NCBI RefSeq assembly: GCF_018977255.1
Contig: NW_024704742.1
Span: 30,568,001-30,632,000 of the forward strand
Length of the DNA stretch: 64,000 bases
Direction of reading: 5' to 3'
Origin: Callorhinchus milii
Lineage: Eukaryota
Part shown: piece by piece, positions 9,612-40,694 of the stretch
Layout: each line of letters starts with the position of its first letter
Position numbering within the stretch: the first letter of the stretch is position 1
Notes under the pieces: model-generated
What the model was told of the DNA's origin: nothing
Seen by the model: only the letters and a program-made list of their open reading frames with translations
Databases searched by the model: none
Program-made: the position numbers and the translations under genes

Positions 9612-9730
9612 CTCAACTGTTTCAGTGTTGGAATATCTGCTCAGAGTCGGCTGTGAAGGGCTTATGACAGTGATCTGCACAAAGGCATTTGGTTTCCGAT
9701 CACGAGCTGCAGCCACCAGCTCCTTGCATG
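9612..9730 (-). CDS. INPP4B: INPP4B C2-domain exon (119 nt, phase 1 to 0): [40 protein letters not shown]
   Basis: tttttcaccag|CATGCAAG...GTTGAG|gtaagt. Aligns without gaps to human INPP4B [40 protein letters not shown], and is closer to INPP4B than to INPP4A. Confidence 0.95.
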
Positions 9731-18025: not shown

Positions 18026-18070
18026 CAAGGCTGAATTCCAATTTGGGCTCAAATGGAACAGGGTCAATAC
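18026..18070 (-). CDS. INPP4B: INPP4B 45-nt exon (phase 1 to 1): (S)IDPVPFEPKLEFSL
   Basis: tttgtctcatttcag|GTATTGAC...AGCCTTG|gtaaga. Matches human SIQKTPNEPQLEFIL in length and in the EP.LEF.L motif. Phases fit both neighbouring exons. Confidence 0.92.
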
Positions 18071-20406: not shown

Positions 20407-20619
20407 TTATCAGTGGAAAGGCTGTCTCTGGCAGAGCGAGTGTCTGACGGGTCTCATCTGGGCTGGTGTTCTCTCCGATTTCCATGATGAGTTGCTGGAG
20501 GTGTGCGATCCTCCTTTGCAAACCTTCGGAGTTTGCTTCTTGGAGAGCTGCAATCCAGTCCCCACAGTCTGACTTTGAGACGGCTTCAAGATAAATGTCT
20601 GGGTCTCCACTCTGAAAAG
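20407..20619 (-). CDS. INPP4B: INPP4B coding exon (213 nt, phase 1 to 1): PH C-terminal helix plus the region equivalent to the mammalian N-terminus (MEIGEN...)
   Basis: gtgcag|CTTTTCAG...CTGATAA|gtaaga; lies within ORF 20366..20629. MEIGENTSPDETRQTL is positionally equivalent to human MEIKEEGASEEGQHFL. Upstream YLEAVSKSDCGDWIAALQEA carries the conserved PH-domain Trp helix. Confidence 0.88.
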
Positions 20620-21289
20620 CTGCACTCACAAAATCATTTAAATACCCTCAGTATTCACAGTTCTGGAGAAATATATACATATATCTCATATATATTAAAA
20701 AAAATCACCGACAGGATTGATGCAGTACACAGTCTGAGCCATTCATCTTCCCTGCCAGGTTTCACACACCTAACACTGTCCACCTCGGTAAAAGCTCTCT
20801 CTGCCGCTTTACATTCAGTGTGCACTTTCTCCCGGCAGCACAGCAGTCCCTAAAGCAATTAATGCGTTGCAAAACTAGGTGGCAGAATTATCAAGAAGAA
20901 AAAAAGGAAGCTACACCCACAGCTTCTGCTCAGGCAGAATCACTAGCGTCCACCTTCTAAGGATACACATAGCAACTGTGCTAGGCAGGATTCTGACAGA
21001 AGGACCACTAGGGTTTACTAAGGTGAAAGCTCCCATCCTTCAGCTAGGAGAACCCTCACCAGAGCATTGCTCATCAATTTCTGGTGATAACAGAGCATAG
21101 CACAACTTCTTTACCACCAACAAGTGATAGGGCGGGGGCAGTGATGGGGGAGGGGGTTCAGGGGATCGAGACAGCTGTAAGAGAGGAACTAGTTAGACAC
21201 TATCGCACCCAATAGCATCAGTAGATATTCTCCCAGAGGGTATCTCAATTGATATCATTGATAAAACCTTTTCCCACGCCCCCCTAGGT

Positions 21290-21978
21290 CAGGAGCATGC
21301 TTGTCTGAGTCATAAAGTTGTGGGTGCACACTGAATGTTAAGCCCCACATCGGGAGTTTGAACTCAAAGTCTAGCCTGGTACTGCAAGACAGTGCTGGGG
21401 AACACTGCATTGGTAGAGGAACCATCCTTAGGATGAGACATTAAATTGAAGTCCCGCGTATTTGTAAATAAACATGGCAGCCAATTTAAACACAGCAATG
21501 TCCCCCAAACAGCAATGAAATAAATCATAAATTTTATTTGAGGGATTGTTGTCCAAGACACTGGGAGAAACTCCCTCTTCTTTTTGAATAGGGCCATAGG
21601 ATCTTTAACATCTACCTGAACAGGCAGAAAAGATCTCAGTTTAACCTCTTATCCAAAGGACACTGGCTGACAAAAATGCTTCTAGACTTCAGGTTTAAAT
21701 TCTGAATCCAATTTTCTGTGGGTTCTTTTAAAAAGTACAGAAAAACAGATCCCAAATTAAAACTGGATTTATCAGCCTGGCTCAATTGGTAGCACTTTTG
21801 CCCGAGTCAGAAGTTTGCAAGTTCAAGCCCCATATTGGGACGTTGAACTCACATACTCTATGCTAACACTCCAATGCAGTGCTGTGTGAGTGTTGCATTA
21901 TCGTTGATGCTGTCTTTTGGATGAGACGTTAAACCAATGTCTGCTTGTTCCGGTGGATGTTAAAGATTCCATGGCATG
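21290..21978. mobile_element. Cluster of Deu-SINE fragments in both orientations
   Basis: Deu core ggatgagacattaaa near 21430 and 21920 (+), and a reversed body at ~21460-21670. Confidence 0.7.
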
Positions 21979-22431
21979 TGGAACTGAAAGGATTGCAGAG
22001 CCTCAGCACATCCTTGAAATGAAAGCTGCTAATAAATGCAATTTGTTGTTGACTGAATCTATTGCTCTTGAGGGAGCCAGATAGACACATGTGATGGGTT
22101 AAAAGGCCTTCTTTTGTGCTGTATGTTTCTGTGGTTCTATGGTTCTAGAAATACATTTTATTCTAACTCCTCTAATTTCCCCAAATGCAATTAGTATCCA
22201 CAGCAAAGAACAAGAGCGTTAAAGGTTCTATCTCCCAGATCAGACAAAGTGCACATATACTTCAGCTTTGCTCTCACTATTTCTGATCCCCTCTGAACCC
22301 AACAACTGGATTACAGCCTTGTAATTTACTCCCAAAGATCAATATTTCTCAATTGGTTGACTTCTGTATGTATTGTTATTTACAGGCGATATAGAAACTC
22401 GCAGTAAAGAACCCAGAAACACTTTGCAACA

Positions 22432-22857
22432 TAAATAATATTGCATTTAATATCACACTTTATTATGTCGTTGTGATGTCTCAAAGCGCTTCACAGCTTT
22501 TTACTGTAAAGTGCAGTGACTGTATTTGTAGGTGAATGTGGCAGCTCAATTGCACATAACAATATCTGACAAACAGCCATACAGTGAGTGAGCAATTTTA
22601 TTTCGGGTCTGCTAGCCAGGACACCGCTAGGAGAAACTACCTTCTCTTTTCAAATAGTGCCAAGGCATGTTTAACCACCTGAACTGCCAGATGGAACCTT
22701 GATTTAATGTCTCATCCAAAAGACAGTATATTCGACAATGCAACATACCACCAACACTGCATTGGAGTGTCAGCCTAGACAAGTCTTGACGTGGGGCTTG
22801 AAATCACAATCTTCTGGCTCAGAGATGAGAGTGCTTCCAATCGAGCCAGGCTGACAC
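22432..22857 (-). mobile_element. Near full-length Deu-domain SINE
   Basis: Reversed tail, Deu core and tRNA head (gtcagcctggctcgattggaagcactc). Confidence 0.8.
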
Positions 22858-24821
22858 AATACCCACAAAAATAGTACTAGTGTATTCAATCCCTTTATCT
22901 TCGGAAAGGTCTGTGGGGAATATGCAAGCCTCTAACTACCAAAATTAAATTTCGTACAGAACTATAAAATACAGAATGGAGAAAAGATTTCCAACAGCAC
23001 TGAAGGCATGATATCAGAGCCAACAGTGAAGTCAGATGTAGGTTTTTCACTTATTCACACTAAAAATTACCTTCCTGACTACTGCCGAATCCCAAACTTT
23101 GAAATTGAATAGAGAAGCAAACCTCAAGCATTCGGACATGCTGTTTGACATCAGTTCCAGTTCCTATAAATACACATCGCTACACTTTGCAGCATATCCA
23201 GGGAGGCGTGCTGAAATGTTCTGACGACGTCATGATAAATTGCTACATCAAATGCGAGGATTATTATTATTATTTTGAACAAATACCATTATTATGGAAA
23301 TGATCATTAGCCCCATCCCCTGGCTGCAATCAAACATCAACGCCAACAGAGTAACTAACTGTGACCTCACTCACACTGGGAATCTTGGCAAAATGAACTG
23401 ATTGCAAAGTCTATTGCGGATTTCAAGAGGGAAGCAGACAGATATACGAAGGAGAGAGGCTTGAAGGAGTAAGGGAATAGGGTAGGATTCAATGAACACA
23501 CTGTTCTGAGAGTGGGTAGATACTCAGTGGGCCAAATGTCATCCTTCTGTGCTATACATTTCTATGATTGGATTCACACAGGAAACCACTGCAGTCAAAT
23601 AGTCAGCCTAAGGCATATGCAGATTCATTCCTGCAGCGTTTGCTATTTACATTGCTGTGCGTGAATTGGATTCCACGTTTGCCTACAAGATACACAAGTC
23701 ACTACACTTTACAGTCATTCCTACAAAGCTCTGAGAGATGCCTTCTCTGTGTAAGGCACTATATCAACTGTAAGGAAATATAAGGATTATACTAATATTT
23801 TTTGCAAATTCACATGTCACCTTCAGCCTGCTTTTATATCTACTAAATACACCTGTCATTTTGGATTGATTTATCAATGTAACGGAGCTTATGCTGTTAA
23901 AAATCTAAATGTTTGGTCGAATTCTGTTCCATTTTTTATTTAGATAATGCATACTTTGACAGGATTTTTTCCCCCTAAAATAGCTTAACACAGGATGCTG
24001 TGACCTTTTCATCTTTTCGTCTCCGGAAGCTTTTACTCAACTGATAGCACTCCAAATCTTGTTACACAACTTGTCCTAAATGTTCAGAGAGATAGGAATG
24101 TCATTCGACATTTTTGTTTAGAAAGAAAATCATTTACTGATAGGTTAATATTGATCTTCATAAGATGTAGTGATGGAAACACTCATATTTGGTATTGCAC
24201 AGCCATGAACTGTGCTGCAGGATTATGGATCTGCCAATGACATTTGACTTCTTCTATAGAAGACCTTCATAGGATTTACTGTAAGTGAAGTGACTGTGTA
24301 TTTTGTAGGCAAAAAGTTGGGTTGCTTGCTGGTTCGCCCACAAATATACAGTCACTACACTTCACAGGAAATCCTGCATTGCGTTGAGATGTTTTGACAG
24401 CGTGATAAGTCTCTGCATAGAACGTAAGGTGCATTTATAATAATCTGGGCTGATGCACTGAGGGCACAACAACAGCACAGATGCACAAACAGTGTCGAGG
24501 GGATGTCAGCAAGCCCGGTCACACAAGGGTACAATGTTTGTGCTGTGCTGCAAGCACACATCCTGACACAAAGGCACGGTTGCCAGGTGACTCCGTGTGA
24601 TGAGACAGATAGAGAGACAGATGTCCTTTNAAAAAATGTTTCAACTGCTTTTAATTTATTGCTGCTCAAGAACCTACAGCTCCTGCAGCTGGCAATTTTT
24701 TCATGGATTCTCTTCGAACTTTACTTCTGAACAAATAAACCTGCTCTAGGTTTTGCCTATCTTCGCACTAAAACCACCATGGCTTTCGCCAAAAGTATCA
24801 GCGTGATTCAAAATAAATAAT

Positions 24822-25170
24822 ATAATAATAATAATCCTTGCATTTGATATAGTGCCTTATAAAATCATTGAGATGTCTCAAAGAGTTTCACAGAACCTAC
24901 TGTAAAATGAACTGACTGTATTTTGTGGGCGAAACACAGCAGCCAATTGCACATAGCAGTGTCCCACAATTCAGTGAGCAAATTATTATTATTAAATTTT
25001 TTTGAAGGGACTTTTACCCCAGAAAGTGAGGGGTTCCTACAACTGGGTTCCTACTTACTGCTAAGTAAACAGAGGTGTATGGAGTAAGGAAACTTGCCTA
25101 AGGTTTCGCCCTGGCCGGAATTGAACACGGGTCCTCTTGTTTGTGAGGCTAGTGCTCTAATAGTGCTCTA
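24822..25170 (-). mobile_element. Family-A tRNA SINE
   Basis: (aat)n tail, shared body, ggagtaaggaaacttgcc and reversed B box ggaattgaacac. Confidence 0.85.
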
Positions 25171-26739
25171 ATCTCATTTCAATTGTCAAATTATTTGTTT
25201 GGATCAAAAATAATTCAATAATTCAGCTCCATGCAGGTGTGTTGTATTGCACAATTTAAGAGCTGTAATGCACCGTAATACAGTCTATTCCCATACAAAT
25301 TAATGACACAATCTAATGACACAATCTAGTTAAACCTAGACTCAGCATCTTGGGTCATTGCTTGTGACATGCCAAGATTGGTGTGTTCAATGATGTGGGG
25401 AAGCATTGCATTCTACAAAATCAAAGAGATTTACTCAGGCTATGTAACTGAAGGGGACAAATGGCAAACAACATCTATATAGAAAACAAACAGACAATAA
25501 AACACAATGGTGCAGCAAATGTGATTGCACAATAAAAGAAATGTCATTAAAAAGAGACAGAGCCACAGAAAGACAAGTGTGACAGGCACTCAGATATTAA
25601 TACTGCAATATCTTTGGTCACTCACTTCATGGCTGTTTGTGAAAAATTGCTGTGCACAAATTGCCTACCATGTTCACCTACAAATACACAGACATCCACT
25701 TCACAGTAAATATTGCAAAACACTTTGAGATGGTTCATTGAAGAGATAAGGCACTAAATCAAATGTAAGCTTTAGTATTACTGTATCTCCAGCACTGCCA
25801 CAGTGCCCGCAAAGGAATTTGTATCTGGAGTGAAGAGGCAAATCTATAACATGCACGCATCAGCGAGTCATGCACTCTTCTGCGTACCAGTGAGTCAGCA
25901 GTGGGTGTATTGCACTTGGTTTGAGGCAATAGACCAATGCAATAACACAGGACACTGGAAAAGGGCTCAAATGAAAGGCGATGGCTGATTCCGAAGTTTC
26001 ATCGAGTTATGGGGGTCAGTCACTGAGCCAAAGGGCTCAATTGATCCCATTGGAAGTAAGACTAAATGAGAAGGGTTTCAATGACTTAAAATCTCAAAAG
26101 AACTAACAGATTTAAGGTATTTAAAAACAGATTTATCCACTGAGAAATCCTCAAGTTCGGGAGAGCCGATTGGTGGGAACTCTGATCGAACTTTGTAAAG
26201 TGGGATTCTGTTGAGTGTTTAATGTCTTTAAAATTAACAGTTGAGTCCCTATTGCAATTTATTATCAGGAAATCTGTTAAGAAATAGCTCAAAGTTGACC
26301 CCACAGTGGTCATGTGGGGTCAACTTGGTTTGTATCTCTGTAACTTACAACAACAAACAACAAAATTACATTTGTATAGCGCCTTTCATGTCGGGAGGAC
26401 GTCCCAACTTAAGTGAGATGATCAATTCATGCGAACAGCTGTTCAACCATTGAAGATGTTAGACCATTGAAGGAAAATACAGTGTACAAAATAAAGGAAC
26501 ATGCAACAGCCAGGGTCTAGGCAATTGGATGGAGGGAGGAATGCATAGATGTGTGAATGGGTGGAAGGTATATGTGTGAGGTATATCCTGCTGCAGCAGA
26601 AACAAAAAAGGGAGACAACAGAAAATAATCACAGAAAAGTTCAAGAAAAATAGTTTGAACAAAAAAAAGCAGCGGGAAGAAGCGATGAGAAAAGAGACCC
26701 AGCCTGAGGCGTCTAACTGTAAGTCATAAATATTATTTA

Positions 26740-28285
26740 TGGAGGAGTCCTGTAGCTCAGTGGTTAGAGCACTCGCCTCACAAGTGAGAGACCTGGGTTC
26801 AATTCCCGGCAGGGCGAAACGTTTCTTTACACCACACGCTTCTGTTTACCTAGCAGTAAGTAGGAACCCAGTTAATAATAACCCTTGCATCCTCGCCTAC
26901 AAGGCCATTCACGGCCTTGCTCCCTCCTACCTCTCCGACCTACTATCCCCCTACGTACCTGCCCGTACCCTCCGTTCCTCTGGCTCCGGTCTGCTCCACA
27001 TCCCCCGCCCCAACCGCCCTACTATCGGTGGCCGGGCCTTCAGCCTCTCAGCCCCTAGGCTCTGGAACTCTATCCCCCAGTGCCTTCGCCGCCTCCTCCC
27101 TTTCCTCCTACAAGGCCGGTCTCAAGACCTTTCTCTTTGACCGAGCCTTCAGCTCCCCTCTCGACTCTCTACCCCCTCCTCGCTCCCTCCCTTCCCTCCC
27201 CTCACCCTGACCATTTCCCCCTCCTTGCTCCCTCCCTTCCCTCACCCTGACCATTTCCCCCCTGCTCGGGTCCTGACCCAATTGTACAGCGCCTTGGGAC
27301 GTCCTCCCGACGTGAAAGGCGCTCAATAAATGGAATCTTGTTGTTGTGTTGCATTTGATATAGCGCTTTTCACATCGGGAGGACGTCCAAAAGCGCTTCA
27401 CAGAACACACTGTAAAGTGAATTGACTGTATTCACTCCCACATCACATCACTCCCACCTTCGCTCGCCTCCACTGGCTCCCCATCCCCCAGAGGATTGAT
27501 TTCAAGATCCTCATCCTCACCTACAAGGCCATTCACGGCCTTGCTCCCTCCTACCTCTCCAACCTACTATCCCCCTACCTACCTGCCCGTACCCTCCGTT
27601 CCTCTGGCTCCGGTCTGCTCCACGTCCCCCGCCCCAACCGCCCTACCATCGGTGGTCGGGCCTTCAGCCTCTCAGCCCCAGGCTCTGGAACTCCATCCCC
27701 CAGTGCCTTCGCCTTGCTTCCTCCCTTTCCTCCTTCAAGGCCGGTCTCAAAACCTTTCTCTTTGACCGAGCCTTCAGCTCCCCTCTCGACTCTCTCCCCA
27801 CTCCTCGCTCCCTCCCGTCCCTCCCCTCACCCTGACCATTTCCCCCTCCTCGCTCCCTCCCTTCCCTCACCCTGACCATTTCCCCCCTGCTCGGGTCATG
27901 ACCCAACTGTACAGCGCCTTGGGACGTCCTCCTGACGTGAAAGGCGCTTTATAAATGGAATCTTGTTGTTGTTGTTGCATTTGATATAGCGCTTTTCACG
28001 TCGGGAGGACGTCCCAAAGCGCTTCACAGAACACACTGTAAAGTGAATTGATTGTATATTTGTGGGCGAACGCGGCAGCCAATTGCGCACAGCAATGTCC
28101 CACAAACAGTCGTAGATTGAAAATGACCAATTTTTTTTATTATTGTTTTTGGTTTTTGAAGGGATTATTATTAGGCTCTGTGTGGAGTAAGGAAACTTGC
28201 CCAAGGTTTCGCCCTCTGCCTGGAATTGAACTCAGGTCTCTCACTTGCAAAGCGAGTGCTCTAACCACTGAGCTACAGGACTCCA
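26740..28285. mobile_element. Composite: + SINE head (26740-26875), duplicated [L2 3' end + reversed SINE tail] units, full - SINE (27976-28285)
   Basis: L2 ORF2 C-terminus (LAYKAIHGLAPSYLSDLLSPYVPARTLRSS...GGRAFS..APRLWNS) appears twice, at 26888-27345 and 27437-27975. Confidence 0.9.
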
Positions 28286-29974
28286 GTTATTAGTTGATTG
28301 GCTGATCACTTTTCTGAGGGTAATAATTTCTTTAAAAAATTATAATAATATATTGGTCACTCAATTCATGACTGTTTGTGTGCAATTGGCTGGGAGCCAA
28401 TAGAGAGTACCCACTTCCCCCCCCACCACCTCTTTAATTCTCATCTTTTAGCTCTATACAAAAACACTCCTCATTGTGCCCAAAAACTCTGGAATTCCCC
28501 ACTGTTTTAGGAATGAGAAGAAAAACAATATCCTTGCATTTGACATAGTGCCTTACTCATCAGTAGGAAATCTCAAAGCGCTTCACAGGATTCACTGCAA
28601 AGCACAAAAACAACTTGGATTTATATAGCATCCTTCACGAAGGATACTGTCTTGAAATGCTGCACAATGGTGGTGCTGCACACTGAATGAGGGAAAAGGG
28701 AGAGGACCATAGTCAAAGAGGTAAATCTTAATAGAGGGATTTAAAGATAAAGAATGGACGAGATGGAGGGATAGAGGCAGGCAGTTCCAAAGGTTCATAA
28801 ACTGGTGACTGAAGGCATGGCCATTGGTGGTGGCACAGAGGGTGATGCGCAGCAGGCCAGTGTCTCTTAAGCAAATATTATTGTTTATTTCATTTTGTAG
28901 GCAAAAGCGCCAGCCAATATGGGTACAAAAGTGTTCTGTGAAATAATGGGCAGGTCTGATGCACCCTGCACAACATAGCCACGGATGGGGAATCCACATA
29001 GACATTGCCTTGATTGTTGCTCCTGTTATTTATGTAAGCGAGGGAACCCCAAAACAGCCCGCTGTTCTGGAGGAGGAACCTAGCTGATACCAAGAATGCT
29101 AGCGATCAATACAATACAAAATTACATTTGTATAGTGCCTTTCACGTTGGGAAGATCAACTCCACGACTTTCAATTCTGTGTTTCTGATGTCTGTATCCT
29201 GGTAGTACTGGAGCTTATTCCAATTCCAGAACACAATGTGATATCAACTTAATACTCTCACTTCAATTCCCCATTGGCTGACAAACAACCAGAGAGAATA
29301 AGTAAAAACTAACCCCTCAACCACATTACAACAGCACCAAGAAAAAAAAGCTAAATAAAAACAACCTCCAGAGCAACTGATAGTCATTTCCATGTTGCCT
29401 CTTCCACTACACTTGCCCCAGAGCACTAAAACTACAACCACAGTGAAGCAAAGGTTTCTTATCCGCCCACAAGCTACATCCATATGTCTGTGCTGTACTG
29501 TGCCTCATTTTGTTTCTTGGGTGTATCATTGATCTTGTTCATCTGCTTATTCTGTTTAAGTGTTTCAACCTGTCTTTTCCCATTTGATGCTTTAAATTTA
29601 GTGAAACTTGGGTTTGCATCAGACTACTCTAAGAAATGTTGTGTCTTCCCCATTGGTAGCCAGCCAGGCTGATTCAAATGTTTGAATCCAGTTTCAAAGG
29701 TAAAGATCCATTTTGATCCTGAGTTGCAATATTGCCATGCATAAGATGGCTGCTGCGTTTGCCTACAAATGCACAGTACTTCCTGTGAAAAATGAAGCAA
29801 AATCTTGTGAAGCTGTTTGAGATGTCTCGATGACAAGATAAGGCCCTATATGAAATGGAATGATTATTATAAGGAGCATTATTATTCCTCGGTGTTTTAC
29901 CCTTATTTCAACTATTGTCTTAGCATCTAACACAATCCAGGAGGCAATCCAATACCCCTCATAAAGCTGTCTTT

Positions 29975-30420
29975 AGCTGTAGAACGTCAACAAGAATGAT
30001 GCCCTCCTGGTTGGCTCCCGTCAGCACCTCCACACCTCAGACGCTAACAGCATCACCATCCATGGTTGCACACTCCACCTTACTGAGCCAGTCCGCAACC
30101 TTGGCGTCTTGTTTGACCCTCAACTATCCTTTCTACCCCACATCCGTGTCATGACCAGCTCTGCCTTGCTCCACCTCCGCAACATTGCCCGGCTCCACCA
30201 GGCCACCGAAACCCTTATACATAACATCCAGGCTCGACTATGCAAACTTGACTTGATTGTCGGCCTCCCGAACTCCTCCCTCCATACCCTCCATAGACTG
30301 CAGATCATCCAGAACTCTGCAGCCCATGTCCTTTCCTGCACCAGGCTCCGTGACCCTATCACCCCCATCCTCGCCTGACTCCACTGGCTTCCCATCACAC
30401 AGAGGATACAGTTCAGATCA
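29975..30420 (+). mobile_element. L2 ORF2 fragment
   Basis: VRNLGVLFDPQLSFLPHI...LHLRNIARL...LQIIQNSAAHVL...ITPILA.LHWLP. Confidence 0.85.
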
Positions 30421-31669
30421 CTTCTGGGGATAATAATCCCTTAAAAAAAATCACTCACTCCACGACTGTTTGTAGGACACTGTATTCTTCAATAAAGTGA
30501 TAAGGCATTATATCAGATTCAAGGATTATTATTAGAACAAAATGCAATTTTTAAAAAAGTTTTATCCACTATTACTAGATGACAAAGAGGAGTTTAGCTT
30601 ATGGGGGAATTTCTATCCAGACTTCATTTCCCTTTTAAAAGCACTGAATTATTAAGGGAAGGAAATTTCTCAGAGACAGCATAAAAAAACCACAGCAATA
30701 TTATGTTTTTAGAGCATGTAAAAAGCCCTCACATTGCCCTCACTGCACCAGGCCACATGAATGGTTATGCATGTGTGAGGAATCCTCCAAAGCTACTTCA
30801 CACTGTTGGATGCGATGGGTCAATGTAAGTCTGCTCTGTCTGGAATTCTGGAATTTCCATGTGTAGGTGGGATGCCTGGCATTCGCAATTTGGTTTGGAT
30901 ACTCTTAAGCCTGGTGATGAGAATTAGCATGTGTCAGATGACCGATGAAAAAATAAGCAGCATAAACAGCCTGTTAATTTCACACAGCTCAGGTCATTTC
31001 CTTCATGCTTCTAATCTGGAATAGACCCTTGTGTCTCGGCATGACAAAGTATTTCCTGAACTGATTTAGCCACATGAGAACAACTATGTGCACACTTCCC
31101 TCTCTGAAACACCGAGCACAGCTGCATTGCCAACCAGAGTGGCAGGACAGCAATCCATAATGTATTATAAAAAGCAACAGATAAGTACAATTGCTGAAAC
31201 CCTGAACCCTTTAGCACCTACAAGTGGGTCATCAAATTATCATTACATTTGTTGAAGTACTGGAAAGTTTCAGTAAGCCACAGATCTATCCAACCCAAAC
31301 AGCACTTACATATCAATCTGTAACTAGCAGATGTTACAATGACAAGCACTTAATTCAGGTTAGGAATGCTACACATTCAGACATTGGAGAGTTAGCACAA
31401 TATACCAATTAAACAGTGAAACAGTATCTCCCCATGCAGAGAGGGGAGAATTGCGGTAAGTGGATGGTGGGGTGGGGGACAGTGGGGAGAAGATAGCACA
31501 TGTGTTGTCTTGAATTCAGAATGCAGTGCATATGTGCACGTGAAATCAGGCCTCTCGTCCTTGTCTCTTTTCTAAACAAAGTCAAGCATTTTATTGCGGT
31601 GTATTTTACAAAGAAGTGAAAGAGCACCTCTGCAGGAATAAATCATTTTTCAGTTATATTTTGCTTTAA

Positions 31670-32150
31670 ATCACTCCGCTGCCCACATTTGTGCTCCCTC
31701 ATACAAACCACTTTAGCCCTGAGCACCCCCATCACACCAGAACTTGCCAGGCTCACAAAATATGTGGCTTACTATCACAAAATGGAAAGATTTCAAAATC
31801 CTCACACTCGTTTTCAAATCCCTTCATGTCCTGGCACCTCCCTACCTCTACGATCTGCTTACTCCCCAATCCACTACCCATCACTTCCGCCTCCTGTTTG
31901 TCCCTCATGCCTTCCATTCCACCATCACCAGCTGCACTTTCAGCCACTCTTCCTCAAAACTCTGGAACACTCTCCCTCCGCCTTGTGTCCTCCTTCCCCA
32001 TCTTCGGGTCGTGCCTGAAGAACGTCTTCTTCAATCGTGCTTACGGTCACCTCCCCCCACTCCCTGGGCCTTTGTCAGGCTCCTCCACTGTCAAGCTCTC
32101 TGAGATGTTACGCTGCATGAGAGGCCCTATGCAAATGCAGGTTATTGTTA
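31670..32150 (+). mobile_element. Degraded L2 3' fragment
   Basis: FKILTLVFKSLHVLAPPYLYDLL...KLWNTLP followed by an L2-type tail. Confidence 0.8.
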
Positions 32151-32354
32151 TATTCAATTATATTGAAGACTATGGGGGTCTCATTTCTGAGAGGTACATA
32201 TCAATCTGTAGCTAGGGGATCCTGCAAGTACAAGTGAGTGTTGGAAACCAATCTTTTGGAACTCCCAATATTAACTTCAAATCCAACTTCTGTGAACCCA
32301 GATCACGCCAAAGAGTCCGATGTTGATTGGCTGGAGATCAGCGTTAATGATGTC

Positions 32355-32640
32355 AGTCTGACTCTGTCGGTAGCAGTCTTGCTGCTGAATCAGAAGTTTG
32401 TGGGTTCAAATCCCACCTCAGAAACTTTGAGCTTAAAGTTTAAGATGACAACACTCCATTCAACGCTGTGGGAGCAACGCTTTGTTGGAGGTGCCGTCCT
32501 TGAGGTGAGACAGTAAACCAAGGTCCCATCCCCTCTGTTCAGGTAGACATTAAAGATCTTATGGCACTATTCGAAAAGAGAAGGGAGATTGTCCTGGCCA
32601 ACAAACCTCCCAAAATAATTGGTCACTCACTCCATGACTA
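32355..32640 (+). mobile_element. Deu-domain SINE
   Basis: ggaggtgccgtccttgaggtgagacagtaaaccaaggtcccatccctctgttcaggtagacattaaagatc. Confidence 0.8.
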
Positions 32641-33039
32641 AACCAAGTGTGAGATGTGAGGAGTGAGGGTTGTAGGTTTTGGTCGACGAAAGCCAGGCGA
32701 GGTGGGCCGCGGGTGGGCACTGGCGGGGCCAGAAATTTCAAATCTCCCACCTGTATCATGGGTGCGAGGAACCGCTAAGACCACAGGTGGATGCACTAGC
32801 GGTGGTGAGTAACAGGCGAGGCGAAGGTTCAGCTGCTTCAGGCGCTGAGACGCCATTTTAAAATCCCCCGCCTGATAAACGGTCCCTTCCTGGCACCTTT
32901 TTTTAAATCCACCAGAGTAGGGCAAGTATAGTGTATACTATCCTTTTGCTACCTTGTCATCCCTTCCCTCCTGGTCTTTGGCACCTAAGCCATGTCGTCA
33001 TCCCCCCTTCCACCCCTTCCCCACCAGCTGTCTCCCATA

Positions 33040-35403
33040 GCCCATTGGTGTTCTTGGGCTTATAGGAACCTGGCTCTCGCCAAGTTACCCCATCCCCCTC
33101 ATTGAAGCCTCCCCTCCTGGCTACACCTTTCACCACACCCGCCTCCCCAGCCCCCGCCTCCGCCCCAACCAACGTGGTGGCAGGGTGGCCCTCATCTCCC
33201 AAGCTTCCCTTGGTCTACTCCCGTATTTCTCTGGCTGTTTCTCCTCCTTTGAGCACCTCATCCCCTACCATCCTAGTTTACCCCCCACCGCAACCTCCTG
33301 GCTCCTTCCTCACCGATATCTCCTCTCATCCCCGTCCTTACGGGTTTTTCATGCACATAGCTTGACAGTTGAGCATAGCCTGTCTCTGTTGATTCCATTT
33401 TTATGTTCTTTGTGGGAATAGTTTAGTTTTTTCCAGTTTGTATATTGTAATGGGGATGATTGTTCTGAAGTTCGTTGGGTTGATATTTTTTTGAATGCCT
33501 TGGCAAGCCGAGAGGTGACAAAGGCAGGGACAAGGGTTTCGGCAATGTGGCGGAGGTGGAAGAAAGCGGTGCCGCCACTCTGCCCTTCTAGCTCCCTCTA
33601 TCCTCAAGTCAAACACCAAGTGCGACTTCTTTGCCTCAAAAATTGAAAACATCCGCTTGGCTGCATCGTCCTCCCCATCCATGTCCCCTTCCACCCAACC
33701 CAGAACATCCGCACCACCTTCTCCCTCCTCCACGGCTCCTGCCACTCCCCGCTCTTTACACTCCTTTACCCCCATTTCTCCCTCCTCCCTCTCAACCACA
33801 ATCACCCGCATGAAGTTCACCACCTGCTTCCTTGACTCCGCCCCACCCAGCTGCTGGTCACTCAACTCCCCCTTCTCTCCCTATTGCTGGCTGACACAGT
33901 CAACCAGCCTCTCTCTTCAGGCTCTGTCACTCCCCCTGAAAACCGCTGTCATCACACCCCTCCTAAAAAAAAACGACCTCCAATCCCTCTAATCTCTCAC
34001 ACTACCATCCCATCTCCAAACTGGGCTTCCTTGTCCTGGAATGCCTTGTTGCAGGACAACTTCGGTCACACCTCTCCCTCCACTCCTTTCTCGAGCCCCT
34101 GCAGTCTGGTTTTCGCCTTGCCCACAGCACAGAGACAGCGCTTGTCAAAGCCACAAACTACATTCTCTCTATCTGTGACCAGGGCTCCTCGTCCTCCTGG
34201 ATCTCTCTGCCGCATTCAACACAGTCGACCACCCCATCCTCCTACATCAGCTTTCCTCCCTCATCTACTTTAGTGGGACCGCACTCACATGGTTCAAGTT
34301 GTACTTAACCAACTGTCTCCATTTCATCTCTGCAAATGGTTTCTCCTCCCACCCCTGCCCAGTCACCTGCGGGGTACCCCAGGGCTCCATCCTTGGCCCT
34401 CTTCTTTTCCTTATCTATATGCTCCCTCTTGGCGATGTCATCCATACACAAGGGGTAAACTTTCACGTGTATGGCGCACAAATCTACTTTGCCTCCTCCA
34501 GTAGCAATTCCAGGTCCACTGATGTTCTATCGGCTTATCTGCCAGATATCAAGGCCTAGATGAGTGGAAACTTCCTGCAGCTGAATATGGACAAGACGGA
34601 AGCCATACTTCTTGGCTCCCAGCAGTGTCTTCACTCCTGCAGATCTAAACTCCTCAACCTCCTTGGGCTATCCCTCAGATTCACCGAACCAATACGCAAT
34701 CTAGGCATCCGGCTCGACCCCCAACTGTCCTTCCTCCCTCACGTCCGCTACATGACCAGGACTGCTTTCTTCCACCTCCGCCACTTTGCCCACCTCCGAC
34801 CATACCTTACCCCAAATGCAGCCGAAACCCTTGTTCATGTGTTTATCACCTCCCTCCTGCTTGGATTACTCCAACCTACTCCTCGCCGGTCTCCCCAGCT
34901 CCACCATTCGCAACATCTAGTTCATTCAAAATTCTGTTGCCTGCATGCTGACCCGGACCAAACTCCGTACCCACATCTCACCAGTTCTGGCCAGGCTCCA
35001 CTGGCTCCCCATCACCGAATGGATCAACTTCAAGATCCTCACACTCGTGTTCAAATCCATTCACTCCCTAGCACCTACCTACCCTCTCTGACCTCTTCAC
35101 TCCCCAATCCACCACCCGGCGCCTCCGCTCGACTGGCACCGGCCTCCTGTTCATTCCTCGCACCCTCCGCCCCACCATTGGCGGTCGCGCTTTCAGCCAC
35201 TACGACACAAAATCTGCAGCATTCTCCCTCAATCCTTCCACCTTGACCCCTCTTTCCCCTCTTACAAGTCCCGCCTGAAAACTTTCCTGTTCGACCATGC
35301 TTACGGTCACCTCCCACCTGGCTTGGAGTCAGGCCCTGCCACTGTTAAGCGCTCTGAGACACTACCTTGTGTGGAGGGTGCTATATAAGTGCAAGTTGTT
35401 GTT
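33040..35403 (+). pseudogene. Long internally deleted L2 LINE: APE endonuclease and reverse transcriptase pseudo-ORF2 with 3' tail
   Basis: Endonuclease motifs (LIEASPPGYTF, GGRVALI, FSSFEHL) and RT motifs ([49 protein letters not shown]). Many frameshifts; ends gtgctatataagtgcaagttgttgtt. Confidence 0.9.
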
Positions 35404-35619
35404 TGAGGAAACATTGCTGTGTGTAAGGATTGTCCTCCTTGATGGGGAAGTATTATTATTTTTTAGTATTAAGCGGTGTCTCCTTGGAGCAGAACTGGCT
35501 TCAAAGTGACTTGCTTGCCAATGGAATGTTGGAATTGAGTTAGTTGTGAAGTGAGGCCAAACAGTGTTGGTCCAAGTGACAAGTTACATTTTGTAACTTG
35601 TAATTTTCTGCGACTGGGG

Positions 35620-36793
35620 CTCCCTCTCTCCTCATCCTCCTTGACCTCTCTGCTGCCTTCGATATCATTGACCACTCTATCCTCCTCACCTCTCCTCTTA
35701 CCTCAAACTTCATGGTTCTGTCCCTGAATGGTTCAGATCCTATCTCTCACACCGTCTCCACTTCATCTCCACAAATGGCTTCTCCTCTAGCCCCCGTACC
35801 GTCTTGTGCAGCATTCCTCAGGGTCCTTGGTCCCTCCTCTTCAATATCTATATGCTTTCTCTTGGTGACACCATCCGCAGGCATGGGGTCAACTTCCACA
35901 TGTATGTGGATGACATCCAACTCTATCTCTCTGCCTCCACCCTCAACTCCAGGACCACTGCTGTGCTGACAAATGTCCTTCATATATCAACTCCTGGATG
36001 AGAGCTAACTTTCTACAGCTGAATGTCAACAAGACCGAGGCCCCCTTGATTGGCTACTGTCAGCGCCTCCACACCTCAGGCGCTGACAGCATCACCATCC
36101 AAGGATTCACACTCCACCTCACCGAGCCAATCTAGAACCTTGGCACCTTGATCGACCCTCCACTATCCTTTCTACACAAAAACCATGCCATGAACCACTC
36201 TGCCTTCAGCCTCCCCAACTCCTCCCTCCACAGGCTGCAGATCATCCAGAACTCTGCATCCCGTGTCCTCTCTCAGACCAGGGTCCGTGACCTTATCACC
36301 CCCATCCTCAACCAACTCCACTGGCTTCCCATCACACAGAGGATACAGTTCAAGATCCTGGTCCTCACTTTCAAATCCCTCTATAGCTTTGTTCACCCCT
36401 ACCTTACCCGCTCTCTCCACTCCGCTCAGTGGGCTCCGGCCTGCACCATGTCCCCCACCTCGCCCGCCCTTCTATTGGTGGGCGGGACTTCAGCCACTCT
36501 GCCCCCAACCACTTAGCGCTTTGGGACGCTTTGGGACGTCCTCCCGACGTGAAAAGCGCTATATCAAATGCAAGGATTATTATTAGACTGCATCCCACAG
36601 TCCCTCTGCCTCGATCCCTCCCTTCTCTCCCTCAAGACCCTCCTTTTTGACTGTGCCTTCAGTCACCCTCCTTTCCCCACTGCCCCTCCATCCTCCCCGA
36701 TCCCGACTCGGGTTGGAAACACCGATTGTCCAGCGCCTTGGGATGTCCTCTCGACGTGAAATGCATTATACAAGTGTAATTTTATTGTTGTTG
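35620..36793 (+). pseudogene. 5'-truncated L2 RT pseudo-ORF with a SINE tail inserted at ~36512-36585
   Basis: [34 protein letters not shown] (YADD motif variant), LHWLPITQRIQFKIL; (ttg)n tail. Confidence 0.9.
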
Positions 36794-38129
36794 TCAAAAC
36801 TAAGTTAAACAGTTTTAGTTGGTTAAATTCCAACATTTTCTGTTGAGCTTTCCATGTTGCTTTTCACTCAGCGCCAAGCAGAATGCCGCAATGTAGGTGG
36901 TAAAGGGTTGTTTAATGGGTTTATCACAACAGCAAATGATCACTGATTTTCACACCTACAACAGCAGTTTCTGCTCATTATTCAGGGGGAGATCCAATTA
37001 ACTTAAATCATTCAGCCATATTTCAACATTTTAAAAATTTACGACAACAGTGACACAAATCCCACTGCAGCTCCAGTTCATTTCCAGCCAAAGCGCAGAT
37101 ATAAAGCGTTTGGAGCTGCAGCTTGATAATGAACACTGACAGCAATCACTCCCTTGTGATTGTGCAAACATTGCAGTTATCAGGCCATCTCCTGAAATAC
37201 ATTGGGTTGAAAATTGTGGACTGTGATGTTATATTTATCACTGGAGATAATTAGCACAGCACCTGGAAAGTGCTGTCCAACCGATCGAATTGCTCCCAAG
37301 TGTACACCCACCCCATCCCCCCTCATTTAAGGTCCGTGAAATGGCACTCAGATACATTTGGTAACATATCACAGAACAATTTTCATCCTATTGTGCTTTA
37401 TTGTGTACGTGCATGCTTTCAGGACTGACTAAAAGTATAACATTTCATAAAACCTCCCTGAACTAAAAATCTGACCAGTAAATCAATCATTGTCTAATTA
37501 CCACCCAAACCACTGCTCAGCTTATAACTTCTCATTCAAACTGGCCGTCGATCTAGAAATTTTTTCGATACAAACTGATCTGCAGAGTATTACAACTGTA
37601 CAGGAAATACATTATAAATACTCTTTCTCTTCATTTATTCAGGATCCTATCTCCACATGATGCAGCGCACATGTTCTGTTCTGAAGTCACGCACTGATTG
37701 ATTATTAAGACTCCACTTGTCTAAAACACTGTCATTCCATTTCTGACCTTTCATGTCAATTTTCTCTTGCTTTTCTGAGAAAATCTTACAGGAAACATTC
37801 TTAGAAATGCTTGAAGTTGTTATAAGCTAGTCCACTCCACTGCACTTTGTACTGCTGGGTACATTTTGCAGCAATGTATACACAGAACCATAATAATAAT
37901 CCTTGCATTTGATATAGCACCTACTAGGTCGTTGAAATATCTCAAAATGTTTCACAGGACATACTGTAGAGTTTAGTGACTGTGTACTTGTAAGCAAATA
38001 GAGCAGTCAATGTTCCAAAAACAACCATGAAGTGAATGGTCAATGTTATCTGGGGGATTGTTGGAAAAGATACTGGGAGAAACTTCCTTCTCTTTTTGAA
38101 TAGTGCCACAAAATCTTTGGTATCCACTG

Positions 38130-38400
38130 CGATATCCTTCTTATAATATGGAGACCAGAGTTCGACACAATACTCCGTATGTGGTCAAACCAACGTTTTG
38201 TATAAACTCAACATCACCTCCTCGCTTTTACATTCTATCCCCCTGGATATAAAGCCCAAGACCCCATTGGCCTTTTCATAGCCTAGTCTACCTGTATAGC
38301 TACTTTTAGTGCTTTGTGGATCTGAATCCCCAGATCTCTATGTTCCTCTACTCCTCTCAGGTTCCTATCATCTACTCTAGGCGGCTTCTTCATTTTTCCT
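38130..38400 (-). mobile_element. CR1 ORF2 fragment
   Basis: Minus strand reads KANGVLGFISRGIECKSEEVMLSLYKTLV*PHTEYCVELWSPYYKKDI. Confidence 0.85.
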
Positions 38401-39319
38401 TATATATGTGACTGGTATACTGGCTGTAGATTATCTCAGAACGAAGCTCAATGTGACAGACGCCAGTTACCAGCAGATCTCATTTATACAACTCTGATTC
38501 CTTCTCAAACAATTCTCTTAGAAAGCATGTACTTTAACCGCTATCATTGCGTAAAGGTCAATGCTTCAGTCTGACAAGTACAAAATGTGCTTTACTACAT
38601 AATTAAGCAGGCTGTTCTGCAAGCAGTCAGTCTGGCCTCGATGTGTACATGATTTGTCATTGCGAAATTCCACCTGACAACACAGGGCTTCAATGAAAGT
38701 GAGTGTTGTCCTTACTGTGCCATTACTAAAGTTAAGTAGAGTAACACATTTCCTTCTCTCTGTGCCTACTGAGATTTCCGCAGAACTATTTGATTATGAT
38801 TGGCATGATTTTCAGCAACAACAACAATCACCATTATCTCCTAAGGCTACAAATTGTCTTCAATGCTCCCCCACATTGACTTTGCTTGTTTTTTTTAATT
38901 CAATTTATTTTATTCAATCATACATAACACAAAGTGCAGCGGTGCAGCTATCACAGCCCTGCTTCAGAAGACAACACCATTCTGCAGCTTGCACATTTAA
39001 ATGTATTTAATATACTCCATGCGCAGTTGCGTATAAAATACACAGTCGCTACACTTTATCCGTCTTTGCCCATCTTCCGATCAAACCTAAAAGCTTTCCT
39101 TTTCCACCAAGCCTATGATCACCTCCCATTTCTCTCTGGCTCGGCGTTAAACTGTAACATTGTTAAGCACTCCAAGACACTAACCCAAGTGAAGATATAA
39201 ATTCAAATTGTTGTGGTTTACAGTAAACCCTGCGAAGCACTTTTGAGAAATTCTCCTGATATGAAAGGTGTTATAATAAACACAAGGTTTCTTATTATGT
39301 CGTTGTGGATTGATTGACC

Positions 39320-39522
39320 AAATTGTTTTTGAGGGGAGGGAGATTATTATCCACGAATATCGATCTGCCAATATACTAACAAATGGGTTCCTCCTTATTC
39401 CAAGGTAAACAGAGGAGTGTGGAGTAAGGAAACCTTGCCTAACATTTCACCCGCCCACGAATTGAACCCGGGTCATCCCACTTGTGAGGCGAGCACGCTA
39501 ACCAATACACTACAGGACTTCA
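39320..39522 (-). mobile_element. Family-A SINE, 5' half
   Basis: ggtaaacagaggagtgtggagtaaggaaaccttgcc...aattgaacccggg...ctacaggact. Confidence 0.75.
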
Positions 39523-40609
39523 CTATAATAAACACAAGGGATAAATTTACATAAATTGGGAGGAATAAACACACTTGTGCTCAAACACTGATTCAACTTT
39601 TAACCACATCTTCAGGCACTCACCCCAGACACATGCACACTTGACAACACACTACTCTTCCTTTATAAGCCTTTGGGCTTGAGGGTAAAGACGCATTGCA
39701 TTTGCATTGTTGAAGGCACGTAGTTTGTGCTGAAATCGGCAAAACCACTCTTTTTGAAGTGGAAAGAGAATGGGCAGGGGCACAAATGCAAAGCATTTAG
39801 AATTGTTGTGGCTAACCAAATGAATTTTTCTTTATTGAATTTTTCTTCATTTACGTCCGAGCTATAGATATCGATGCTCGGTAACTACTGGAAACAAGGT
39901 ATTGATTTGGCACAGACTTGCCTGGACTGGTGGTGCTGGTGTTTGGCGAGCTAACTACTTGACTCTCCAAAAGCGACCATTGAGCTACTGCACCAGCATA
40001 ATGTGTAAAGAATAATTCACTGAAGAAAAATTAGTTTAGTTGGCTGACAAAAAAGGTTGGCCACCAATGATCTAGAGTGAGCTTATTTATCAAGTGCGAT
40101 CAGGAACACTTTCATTCAATTCCATCTGCAATAGTTGCTGTGATTTAAGCACCAAGCCAGAGTGTTGCCAGAATCCCTTTTGAAATCCCCGAGTGGTGGT
40201 TTCACGAGGGCTCAGAGCCCATCAGGGATGAGGGCTCGTCAGCCTATAACCACTCGCTAGCTGGTTGGCGGTTTCCTGATGCCAGAGGTTGGGCCACATC
40301 AGTATTGGGTCAATAAGATGGACAACCAGAAAACAGGAGCTGGTGATGAATGAAACAACAAATACATTTGTACAGGGCCTTTCACTTCAGGAGGAATGCA
40401 TGAATGCAACCATGCATTTACCAAACCAACATGCTTTTAGGTGTGCAATGCATCAATTTCTTCCTTCAGTCATTGATTTCTGACTTTAAAAAAGGGGCAA
40501 ATAAATACAAGCAACCCAATTACAATGGAACAATCAGAAATTAATTCATGGTACAAAAAAGCCAGTATAAACTGGTCAGGACAGAACATCTGGTGGAGTC
40601 AATACTCAC

Positions 40610-40694
40610 TGATAGTTAATGCTGAGCTCCTGTTATCTGTGAACTCCACAATGTAACATCGTTCCAAGACAATTACTTCAGCAAGATCCGACTT
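40610..40694 (-). CDS. INPP4B: INPP4B coding exon, putative PH-domain beta strands (85 nt, phase 0 to 1): KSDLAEVIVLERCYIVEFTDNRSSALTI
   Basis: Minus strand reads cctctcattcatttcccacag|AAGTCGGAT...ACTATCA|gtgagt, a strong polypyrimidine acceptor and consensus donor. The frame is open and the phase-1 end joins the phase-1 start of 20407-20619 (A+CT=Thr). VIVLERC resembles the GVIVLEQC / GALLLERC motif of invertebrate INPP4 and PLEKHJ1 PH domains. Not in the ORF track. Confidence 0.8.

Follow-up and report, generated by a model that had tools for sequence, protein, structure and literature searches.

Exons for an N-terminal PH domain upstream of the mammalian start codon in INPP4B of Callorhinchus milii

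Where does the INPP4B protein of Callorhinchus milii begin? The domain scheme given for the mammalian enzyme consists of a C2 domain, an NHR2 or PEST region and a CX5R phosphatase domain, and those domain descriptions include no PH domain (PMC3248162, PMC10631434, PMC5301276). All four named C. milii models (907, 919, 839 and 795 aa) begin at the sequence MEIGEN or later, so that they too are without a PH part. A stretch of 64,000 nucleotides from this species (hereafter called the window) nevertheless carries open reading frame on the 5' side of MEIGEN, and the original prediction was that this frame belongs to a PH domain. Our best explanation, to which we assign a probability of about 0.93, is that C. 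milii INPP4B has a long form with an N-terminal PH domain and that the PH-less mammalian enzyme is derived.

Table 1. INPP4B features, numbered by position in the window
Feature	Position	Strand	Length	Details
Exon 1	about 136 kb upstream of exon 3, beyond position 64000, same contig	minus	118 nt	ATG
Exon 2	about 107 kb upstream of exon 3, beyond position 64000, same contig	minus	65 nt	...RWCRLQGNLLFLMK...
Exon 3	40610..40694	minus	85 nt	...cccacag before, gtgagt after
Intron 3	20620..40609	minus	19,990 nt	phase 1 on both sides
Exon 4	20407..20619	minus	213 nt	...gtgcag before, gtaaga after
Internal ATG (MEIGEN)	20483..20485	minus		codon 135 of the long form
Exon 5	18026..18070	minus	45 nt	...IDPVPFEPKLEFSL; tcag before, gtaaga after; matches P0012
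Exon 6, start of C2 domain	9612..9730	minus	119 nt	CKELV...NTETVE; ccag before, gtaagt after

Two spliced exons in a single frame

Exons 3 and 4 are confirmed as genuine spliced parts of holocephalan INPP4B, the type II inositol 3,4-bisphosphate 4-phosphatase. The canonical splice sites and matching phase 1 proposed for them are borne out by the AG/GT flanks and the frame: joined in phase 1, the two exons form a single open frame. Translation of exon 3 gives 28 residues (KSDLAEV...ALTI) with one base over, and past the split codon exon 4 reads FQSGDPD...QQLIMEIGEN...PLI, which reproduces the 73 stop-free residues originally listed ahead of MEIGEN. The frame 5' of the exon 4 acceptor is open only as far as 20647.

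Both exons have close counterparts in sharks. In a tblastn search with shark INPP4B as query, exon 3 is 78% identical to residues 63–90 of the Cetorhinus maximus model P0005, and exon 4 is 77% identical to residues 87–161. A profile of orthologous N-termini compared with the frames of the window picks out the two exon-bearing open frames (E 6.5e-8, and 2.3e-20 for exon 4); the next best among all window frames has an E of 1.9. Judged by these sequence scores, the match of the two exons to the orthologue profile exceeds chance.

The junction from 40610 to 20619 is present in read contigs from three runs (X1, X2 and X3). In each run, contigs span exon 3, colinearity ends in a loose end at 40610, and the following 30 letters (the length compared for every contig end) equal window positions 20590–20619 exactly. 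At the other edge of the exon, the X1 and X3 contigs depart at 40694 into positions 1516–1545 of the upstream locus L003, which is the end of exon 2; the X2 contig reaches 40695, and a loose end at 40694 is listed only for the other two runs. In one X3 contig, of 4,329 nt, exon 3 occupies positions 316–400. Because a genome search found each PH exon in single copy and no contiguous retrocopy, the joined contigs derive from spliced RNA; all three runs come from one study, and their label 'RNA?' is a guess rather than an entry in the run list. A fourth run, X4, is DNA-like and colinear across 40694. X1 also holds a contig that is colinear over intron and exon (40110–40639) at a depth of 9.9, where the spliced contigs have about 60; it represents unspliced RNA or DNA carry-over.

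A start codon far upstream

The first PH exons had been expected past position 64000. They are there, on the same contig and strand. Exon 1 starts with an ATG and reads MRFNSSAL..., where its shark counterparts read MNFNSAAL... or MKFNSAEL.... Exons 1–4 have canonical splice sites and compatible phases, and together (118 + 65 + 85 + 213 nt) they make 160 codons with no stop, 134 of which come before the Met aligned with the mammalian start. We predict that exon 1 is joined to exon 2 and that translation begins at the exon 1 ATG. The introns among these four exons measure about 28.5, 107 and 20 kb, and the gene, on the minus strand, extends over at least 357 kb.

The gene is identified as INPP4B by 100% identity of the window exons to P0012, a named C. 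milii model, by the C2 domain and by the CX5R motif. Residues 1–27 of P0012 match 20485–20405 at 100% identity, and exon 6 corresponds to residues 31–81. Pfam C2 spans residues 42–143, and the CX5R catalytic motif reads CKSAKDRT; the exons for the catalytic part are on this contig and strand too, but not within the window. The Met of MEIGEN is the counterpart of the MEIKEE Met of mammals and birds, and the public 907-aa and 919-aa models start with it. From this internal Met on, the C. milii gene matches mammalian INPP4B (linker, C2 and, as seen in P0012, CKSAKDRT); it differs in its 134 extra N-terminal residues. What is new here is the corrected INPP4B gene model for C. milii, which gains those residues and two far-upstream exons.

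Could the frame before MEIGEN be a mere 5' leader, with translation from the internal Met and the 73 (or 134) codons non-coding? That is how all four named C. milii protein models have it, and the mammalian enzyme is described as a C2-NHR2-phosphatase protein, PH-less in those descriptions (PMC3248162, PMC10631434, PMC5301276). However, conservation at the protein level runs across all 134 residues, out to birds (58%) and lizards; the ATG is conserved and opens an M-[RK]-[FY]-N start; orthologues yield both a match to the PH profile and a PH fold; and 160 codons spread over four exons contain no stop. An untranslated leader would not preserve conserved residues, a start, a PH signal and a stop-free frame, and we therefore consider this explanation highly improbable.

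The PH domain

Exons 3 and 4 are confirmed as coding for the latter half of a PH domain at the N-terminus. Placed on the orthologue model, exon 3 covers strands β4–β6. Exon 4 contributes the final strand of the domain and its C-terminal helix with the invariant Trp (...CGDWIAAL... in the window), then a second helix and the first part of the linker.

The anticipated PH-profile match and AlphaFold PH fold were both obtained on orthologues, 53–81% identical, rather than on the window's own joined peptide. Pfam PH (PF00169) scores 44.9 bits in shark, 40.9 in skate, 38.2 in gar and 25.6 in crow, all above the curated cut-off of 25.1 bits, and the matches cover positions 2–103 (shark and skate), 17–103 (gar) and 14–101 (crow) of the 105 in the profile. 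Taken alone, the 28-aa exon 3 piece has no Pfam match, and the 70-aa exon 4 piece gives PH below the cut-off (E 0.26, 12.3 bits). The N-terminus of the window species scores 214 bits against a profile of 18 N-termini, a profile that itself matches 69 PDB PH-domain sequences (best E 3.2e-8).

The AF2 model of residues 1–140 of shark P0005 (pLDDT 87.8, pTM 0.81) is a seven-stranded sandwich (strands 21–29, 42–49, 52–56, 65–70, 74–78, 86–91 and 98–101) capped by a helix (105–118) and followed by an extra helix (120–139). Foldseek returns 257 PDB matches to it at E ≤ 0.001, with PH domains on top. Five residues (W111, R44, G23, N51 and F54) are the same in all 18 aligned sequences. The PH domains of Tiam1/Tiam2 (PH-CC-Ex), SKAP-Hom, ArhGAP9, Grp1 and PLEKHA7 have the same sandwich and capping helix, and Tiam1 also has helices after its PH domain; the likeness to INPP4B is known here as one of fold only, and sequence identity to solved PH domains is 12–24%.

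Small proteins, too, align with this PH domain. An intronless 286-aa ORF elsewhere in the C. milii genome (L002; Pfam PH 78.8 bits) aligns with PH residues 1–133 at 31–33% identity (E 1.9e-10), sharing an MKFN start and RWF.LKGNLLFYF with the INPP4B PH domain, and unnamed proteins of 138–163 aa align with PH residues 1–135. The kinship with PLEKHJ1 proposed originally was assessed on this paralogue and on the small unnamed proteins, the former putatively PHETA/Sesquipedalian-like and the latter putatively PLEKHJ1-like. Unlike INPP4B, neither has a C2 or a phosphatase domain.

A probably ancestral architecture and its possible function

INPP4B with a PH domain is not a new kind of protein. Public RefSeq and UniRef models already predict the architecture in dozens of species, and Pfam PH calls come precomputed with them. 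Identity over the 134-residue N-terminus is 81% in the basking shark, 73–74% in the bamboo shark and rays, 62–63% in gar, bowfin and sturgeon, 56–58% in birds (crow 58%) and 43–55% in lizards. This N-terminus is intact in all 14 vertebrate INPP4B models examined, which range from sharks and rays to birds and lizards; they are free of the stops or frameshifts in orthologous exons that would have spoken against the original prediction, nor was any of the other three outcomes named in advance as contrary to it observed. Closest are the shark and ray models, all NCBI predictions (Cetorhinus maximus P0005, Chiloscyllium plagiosum P0010, Hemiscyllium ocellatum P0009, Amblyraja radiata P0008 and Hemitrygon akajei P0004), which share with the window gene the N-terminal 134–135 residues (73–81% identical), the internal MEI... 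Met and a domain order of PH, C2 and phosphatase, whereas the named models of C. milii itself are without the PH part.

PH-bearing INPP4B models are found in sharks, rays, gar, bowfin, sturgeon, an eel, turtles, lizards and birds, and of ten further representatives looked up nine are PH-bearing models named as INPP4 (a salmonid, a croaker, a lamprey, a hemichordate, two ticks, a spider, a nemertean and a cuttlefish). In the named INPP4 models of nine non-shark taxa the PH domain lies at residues 1–135. The invertebrate and lamprey models (Saccoglossus, Ixodes, Hyalomma, Oedothorax, Tubulanus, Acanthosepion and Lampetra planeri) resemble the window gene in having PH at 1 to about 135 of 900–1100 aa, the M-[RK]-[FY]-N start and an ERWCRL.GN.LF motif; they differ in that PH identity is just 29–39% and several are named as type I (INPP4A)-like. 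Mammals are absent from the PH-region matches (0 of 57 in one search, 0 among the 120 listed of 124 in another), and amphibians are likewise absent from the 57 matches and from the 120 listed of 124. Models predict a PH-bearing INPP4B for most of the non-mammalian jawed vertebrates sampled. The suggestion that this lineage keeps an ancestral PH-C2-phosphatase enzyme is supported, with one correction: an ancestral PH domain fits its presence in invertebrates and lamprey, but its retention is not peculiar to the lineage, being shared with fishes, reptiles and birds.

We propose that the long mRNA would be translated from the exon 1 ATG, exons 1–4 supplying 134 residues ahead of the Met at which mammals start. 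These residues begin with a short helix, continue with the seven strands and the C-terminal helix of the PH domain, and run on into a second long helix, in which the 'mammalian' Met lies. The product would then run PH, helix, C2, an NHR2-like region and CX5R 4-phosphatase. Invertebrate and lamprey INPP4 has this architecture as well, as does INPP4B in other fishes and in turtles, lizards and birds, and the PH-less mammalian enzyme would be a derived form.

The PH exons could instead be alternative exons. In that case an isoform that lacks all or part of the PH domain, made from a different promoter or first exon or by internal initiation, would coexist with the long form and perhaps dominate some tissues, which would make the PH domain a regulated add-on. 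Predicted isoforms of relatives point this way: P0003 (994 aa) and P0007 (1022 aa) begin inside the PH domain at MKNRSS, P0006 (987 aa) joins a different first exon to the exon 3 equivalent, and among the matches listed many bird isoforms span only 55–63% of the PH query. The mammalian form, moreover, shows that an enzyme starting at the internal Met works. Yet no sign of such an isoform was seen in C. milii itself, where exon 4 is joined to exon 3 in all three runs that hold exon 4 (X1–X3), and we regard such a regulated add-on as unlikely.

What might the PH domain of the long form do? It may serve as a second membrane- or partner-targeting module alongside C2. The canonical 3-phosphoinositide-binding signature of PH domains is K-Xn-(K/R)-X-R, a β1 Lys and a basic residue two before the β2 Arg. 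At β2, sharks and the window species read L-T/I-E-R-W, and in the window species (LTERW) the position two before R44 is T, not a basic residue. Sharks and invertebrates have T, I or S there, and R is confined to gar, birds and lizards. Weak membrane binding is nevertheless common among PH domains without the signature. The INPP4B domain might act through coincidence or avidity, using its invariant β2 Arg and basic β1-β2 loop, and would not be a canonical high-affinity 3-phosphoinositide sensor. We give lipid-assisted targeting an even chance.

Alternatively, the domain may have a PH fold that does not bind lipid, its role being to engage a partner protein or, in autoregulation, to turn back onto the C2 or phosphatase domain, as in PH-helix modules such as Tiam1 PH-CC-Ex. 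The full signature is missing, and in sharks, the window species and invertebrates the residue before the β2 Arg is acidic, in addition to the T, I or S at -2. The top Foldseek match is Tiam1 PH-CC-Ex, a PH domain followed by helices; INPP4B has a conserved long helix after its PH domain; and the nearest paralogue in the genome is the adaptor that we presume to be PHETA/Ses-like. On the other hand, R44 is invariant and R47 and K57 nearly so, the β1-β2 loop is basic in sharks and the window species, and R-E-R-W is present in gar, birds and lizards. A domain of this non-lipid kind is possible, though doubtful.

The literature searched holds no description of PH-dependent targeting or gating of INPP4B. 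Our tentative proposal, which we place a little short of even odds, is that the PH-helix unit has a working role in regulating vertebrate INPP4B and that the stem lineage of mammals lost it, as amphibians may also have done, since mammals and amphibians alike are absent from the PH searches. The widely studied mammalian tumour-suppressor enzyme would then be N-terminally truncated, and non-mammalian INPP4B would be PH-targeted or PH-gated.

The PH-less scheme presented in the domain accounts of reviews covers the mammalian protein only (PMC3248162, PMC10631434, PMC5301276). By our reading, the ancestral enzyme and the INPP4B of most non-mammalian vertebrates would carry a PH domain. This could be relevant to studies of PI(3,4)P2 signalling that use chicken, reptile, gar or shark as models, and mammalian and non-mammalian INPP4B may offer a natural comparison of the enzyme with and without its PH domain.

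INPP4B exons and their splicing

As the original prediction had it, two C. milii INPP4B exons in the window, exons 3 and 4, carry splice sites that join in phase 1, and their translation gives 73 stop-free residues ahead of MEIGEN, the internal Met that is the counterpart of the mammalian start. Exon 3 translates as KSDLAEVIVLERCYIVEFTDNRSSALTI with one spare base; exon 4, after the split codon, reads FQSGDPD...LQQLIMEIGENTSPDETRQTLALPETAFPLI; the intron between them (intron 3) measures 19,990 nt. By tblastn, the 907-aa C. milii model and the basking shark (Cetorhinus maximus) model located four exons in the window (see table), exons 3 and 4 being 78% and 77% identical to basking shark.

The gene is INPP4B. 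When the exon 4 peptide was used as query among longer proteins, 29 candidates yielded 10 matches, nine of them shark or ray type II inositol 3,4-bisphosphate 4-phosphatases (INPP4B; 987-1038 aa) that matched the whole query at 76-81% identity. The tenth, the 907-aa C. milii model, was 100% identical but solely from MEIGEN on (37% of the query). In the protein collection, all four named C. milii models (907, 919, 839 and 795 aa) begin at MEIGEN or later, so the public model lacks the PH part first noticed in the sequence.

The first PH exons had been predicted to lie beyond position 64000, and their likely appearance had been described. Neither tblastn nor a shark N-terminus profile found them in window 40695-64000. 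A genome search with the shark N-terminus gave two further matches on the same contig and strand, ~107 kb (exon 2) and ~136 kb (exon 1) upstream of exon 3; both the position and the look of these exons were anticipated correctly. Joined by script, exons 1-4 (118 + 65 + 85 + 213 = 481 nt) encode 160 codons with zero stops, placing 134 residues ahead of MEIGEN.

Coordinates of INPP4B exons and related C. milii loci (C1, C4 and C8 are contigs of genome G000, with the window at C1:30568001-30632000; L002, L003 and L006 are loci cut from it)
Feature	Position	Strand	Description
Exon 1	L006:1626-1509 = C1:30744607-30744490	minus	ATG start; reads MRFNSSALRALARRPPFCFEKEGALKMCRKSTANWRRPQ; ends CACAAG/gttaaa
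Exon 2	L003:1580-1516 = C1:30715960-30715896	minus	cag/AACTGA...AGCAGC/gtaagt; encodes ...LTERWCRLQGNLLFLMKNRSS
Exon 3	window 40694-40610	minus	85 nt; ...tttcccacag before, gtgagt after
Exon 4	window 20619-20407	minus	213 nt; ...gtgagtgcag before, gtaaga after
Exon 5	window 18070-18026	minus	downstream exon, same gene
Exon 6	window 9730-9612	minus	downstream exon, same gene
PH-protein ORF	L002:1501-2361 = G000:C8:7304570-7305430	plus	intronless, 286 aa
INPP4A-like paralogue	G000:C4:76636037-76682108	plus	same genome; upstream loci L009-L028

Searching sequencing runs with exon 4 returned seven matching runs from two studies, none recorded as RNA; the RNA nature of X1-X3, from one study, is a guess, and X4-X7 are of genome-like size. 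We compared the contigs of X1-X4 with window 40110-41194 (1,085 bases) and read junctions from 30-letter loose ends. Contigs from X1, X2 and X3 (depth 25-60) span 40610-40694 (X2 to 40695) and then depart from the genome. At 40610, the 30 letters of the loose end in all three are exactly window 20590-20619, a match unique within the window. The 40610/20619 junction proposed originally is thus present in contigs of three runs of a single study whose RNA label is guessed. At 40694, the loose end in X1 and X3 is exactly L003:1516-1545, which is the exon 2/exon 3 junction, spanning ~107 kb. The junctions seen in contigs are these two, exon 2/exon 3 and exon 3/exon 4. One X3 contig of 4,329 nt has exon 3 at contig positions 316-400; if the preceding 315 nt comprise exons 1 and 2 plus a leader, that leader would be ~132 nt long.

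The DNA-like run X4 is colinear over 40618-41194 and has no loose end at 40694, the behaviour expected of DNA. X1 also holds a colinear contig (40110-40639, depth 9.9), which is either unspliced RNA or DNA carry-over. Joined contigs might also arise from a processed retrocopy, but the genome search returned a single match per PH exon and no contiguous copy, so a retrocopy cannot account for them.

Two features of the introns deserve mention. Stretches of 24-35 bases from window 40363-40395 and 41060-41150 recur inside many otherwise unrelated contigs of RNA-like and DNA-like runs, with loose ends on both sides, a pattern that fits short dispersed repeat fragments. Within intron 3, window 32001-36000 has a G+C content of up to 0.515, a GC skew of -0.27 and an AT skew of -0.14. 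Four of the five window ORFs of at least 150 aa lie between 31670 and 35246, none of the five contains a Pfam family, and a single small tandem repeat occurs nearby (27803-27886). This segment could represent a mobile element in decay or a compositional island.

The PH fold of the N-terminus

Taken alone, the exon 3 peptide had no Pfam match and the exon 4 peptide matched PH at E 0.26, together with two chance-level matches (CM2 and MerR). Such pieces are too short for Pfam to decide, and we therefore tested orthologues. The basking shark protein (P0005) matched Pfam PH at 44.9 bits (residues 20-118, profile 2-103 of 105), and skate, gar and crow scored 40.9, 38.2 and 25.6 bits, against a cut-off of 25.1. 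The expected PH-profile match was therefore obtained with the orthologues and not with the window's exon pieces on their own. In the PH-less C. milii model, C2 alone was matched.

The joined C. milii N-terminus scores 214 bits against a profile built from an alignment (A1) of 18 orthologous N-termini. Its identity is 81% with basking shark, 73-74% with bamboo shark and rays, 62-63% with gar, bowfin and sturgeon, 56-58% with crow and swan, 53% with conger and 43-55% with four lizards. Run against the PDB, the A1 profile matched 69 sequences at E <= 0.01 (best 2dn6, E 3.2e-8); judged by name, all 60 of the matches listed belong to PH-domain proteins or are chains that contain a PH domain.

AlphaFold2 modelling of basking shark residues 1-140 with the 18-sequence alignment gave the PH fold that had been foreseen (mean pLDDT 87.8, pTM 0.81). 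In this model a short helix (5-12) at the N-terminus precedes seven strands, after which come the PH helix (105-118) and a second long helix (120-139). Foldseek returned 257 PDB matches to it at E <= 0.001, headed by Tiam1 PH-CC-Ex, SKAP-Hom, Dbs DH/PH, ArhGAP9 and Grp1. Mapped onto this model, exon 3 would supply roughly PH strands 4-6 and exon 4 everything from the last strand through both helices to the linker; the Met used as the mammalian start is predicted to fall within the second helix.

Relatives of the domain in C. milii and other animals

The ORF at L002 starts MKFNERSVAYY..., includes ...RWFVLKGNLLFYF, scores 78.8 bits against Pfam PH and is ~31% identical to the INPP4B PH domain over residues 1-133. 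It appears to be the nearest PH paralogue in the C. milii genome, and we take it from its resemblance to be a PHETA/Sesquipedalian-type adaptor. At the INPP4A-like paralogue, the A1 profile, which detects all four PH exons of INPP4B, found none in the 200 kb upstream of the first exon matched; of 10,106 open-frame pieces, the best scored E 2.4. This paralogue either has no PH domain or has its PH exons further away.

The PH region is widespread in INPP4B. Querying with the shark PH region gave 57 matches at E <= 0.001 among 126 candidates, from sharks, rays, bowfin, gar, sturgeon, conger eel, many birds and lizards. With the lizard region, 904 candidates gave 124 such matches, the best 120 coming from lizards, birds, turtles, gar, bowfin, sturgeon, sharks, rays and conger, plus one abalone INPP4A-like protein. 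Most of these matches carry a precomputed Pfam PH call. No mammalian or amphibian PH-bearing INPP4B occurs among the 57 shark-query matches or the best 120 of the 124 lizard-query matches, both candidate sets having been chosen by shared words.

An exhaustive search of representatives gave 184 proteins at E <= 0.001; many of the best 150 are 900-1136 aa long and align at their own residues 1 to ~135. Names exist for nine of the ten looked up: INPP4 in a salmonid, a croaker, a hemichordate, a tick (Hyalomma), a spider, a nemertean and a cuttlefish, 'unnamed protein product' in lamprey, and the UniRef name 'PH domain-containing protein' in Ixodes. Short unnamed ORFs matching the exon 4 part alone are bird-like in sequence. 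By this distribution, the ancestral bilaterian layout is PH-C2-phosphatase, and it has been widely kept. The ancestral architecture originally proposed fits the PH-bearing INPP4 of hemichordate, ticks, spider, nemertean, cuttlefish and lamprey.

Short 'uncharacterized protein' models of 225-288 aa from the teleosts Seriola and Salarias (P0062, P0069/P0234) have an INPP4-type PH domain followed by a stretch that by eye resembles the linker and C2 region, and then end. Either the gene models are incomplete or these are truncated duplicates in teleosts.

The NCBI CDD has a model called PH_INPP4A_INPP4B. No description of an INPP4 PH domain appeared among the papers listed by literature searches, though one may be in print. 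In reviews, mammalian INPP4B is drawn with C2, NHR2 (or PEST) and phosphatase regions and without PH (PMC3248162, PMC10631434, PMC5301276), in agreement with the PH-less mammalian enzyme of the original prediction; in passages of PMC3248162 and PMC10631434 on a PH domain, that of TAPP or AKT is meant.

A possible role for the PH module

INPP4B removes the 4-phosphate from PI(3,4)P2 (PMC3248162, PMC10631434, PMC5301276), and the C2 domain of the mouse enzyme is described as binding phosphatidic acid and PI(3,4,5)P3 (PMC3248162). With gene structure, splicing and fold established, what the PH domain contributes we infer. R44 in strand 2 is invariant (18/18 aligned sequences), and the same alignment shows R47 and K57 as nearly invariant; the beta1-beta2 loop of sharks and C. 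milii is basic. The classical signature of high-affinity 3-phosphoinositide binding is a basic residue two places ahead of the strand-2 Arg. It is absent from C. milii, sharks and invertebrates, which have T/I/S-E-R-W; only gar, birds and lizards have R-E-R-W, with the signature residue. On a rival reading, the unit of PH domain and helix would be protein-binding or autoregulatory. The best reading is that the PH domain would provide low-specificity contact with membrane or partner, acting jointly with the C2 domain.

Three predicted INPP4B isoforms of sharks and rays (P0003, P0006 and P0007) start inside the PH domain and would lack its first three strands; the start is the Met of ...LFLMKNRSS in some and comes from a different first exon otherwise. 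Such isoforms hint that the gene family has alternative 5' ends and that the module may be used in a regulated way.

Overall, the initial observation is confirmed, and its interpretation has support. The outcome is a corrected INPP4B gene model for Callorhinchus milii. Its PH-bearing INPP4B is a further case of a form already in public automatic annotation and not a new kind of protein. On the boldest reading, the PH module may be functional and may have been lost specifically in mammals.
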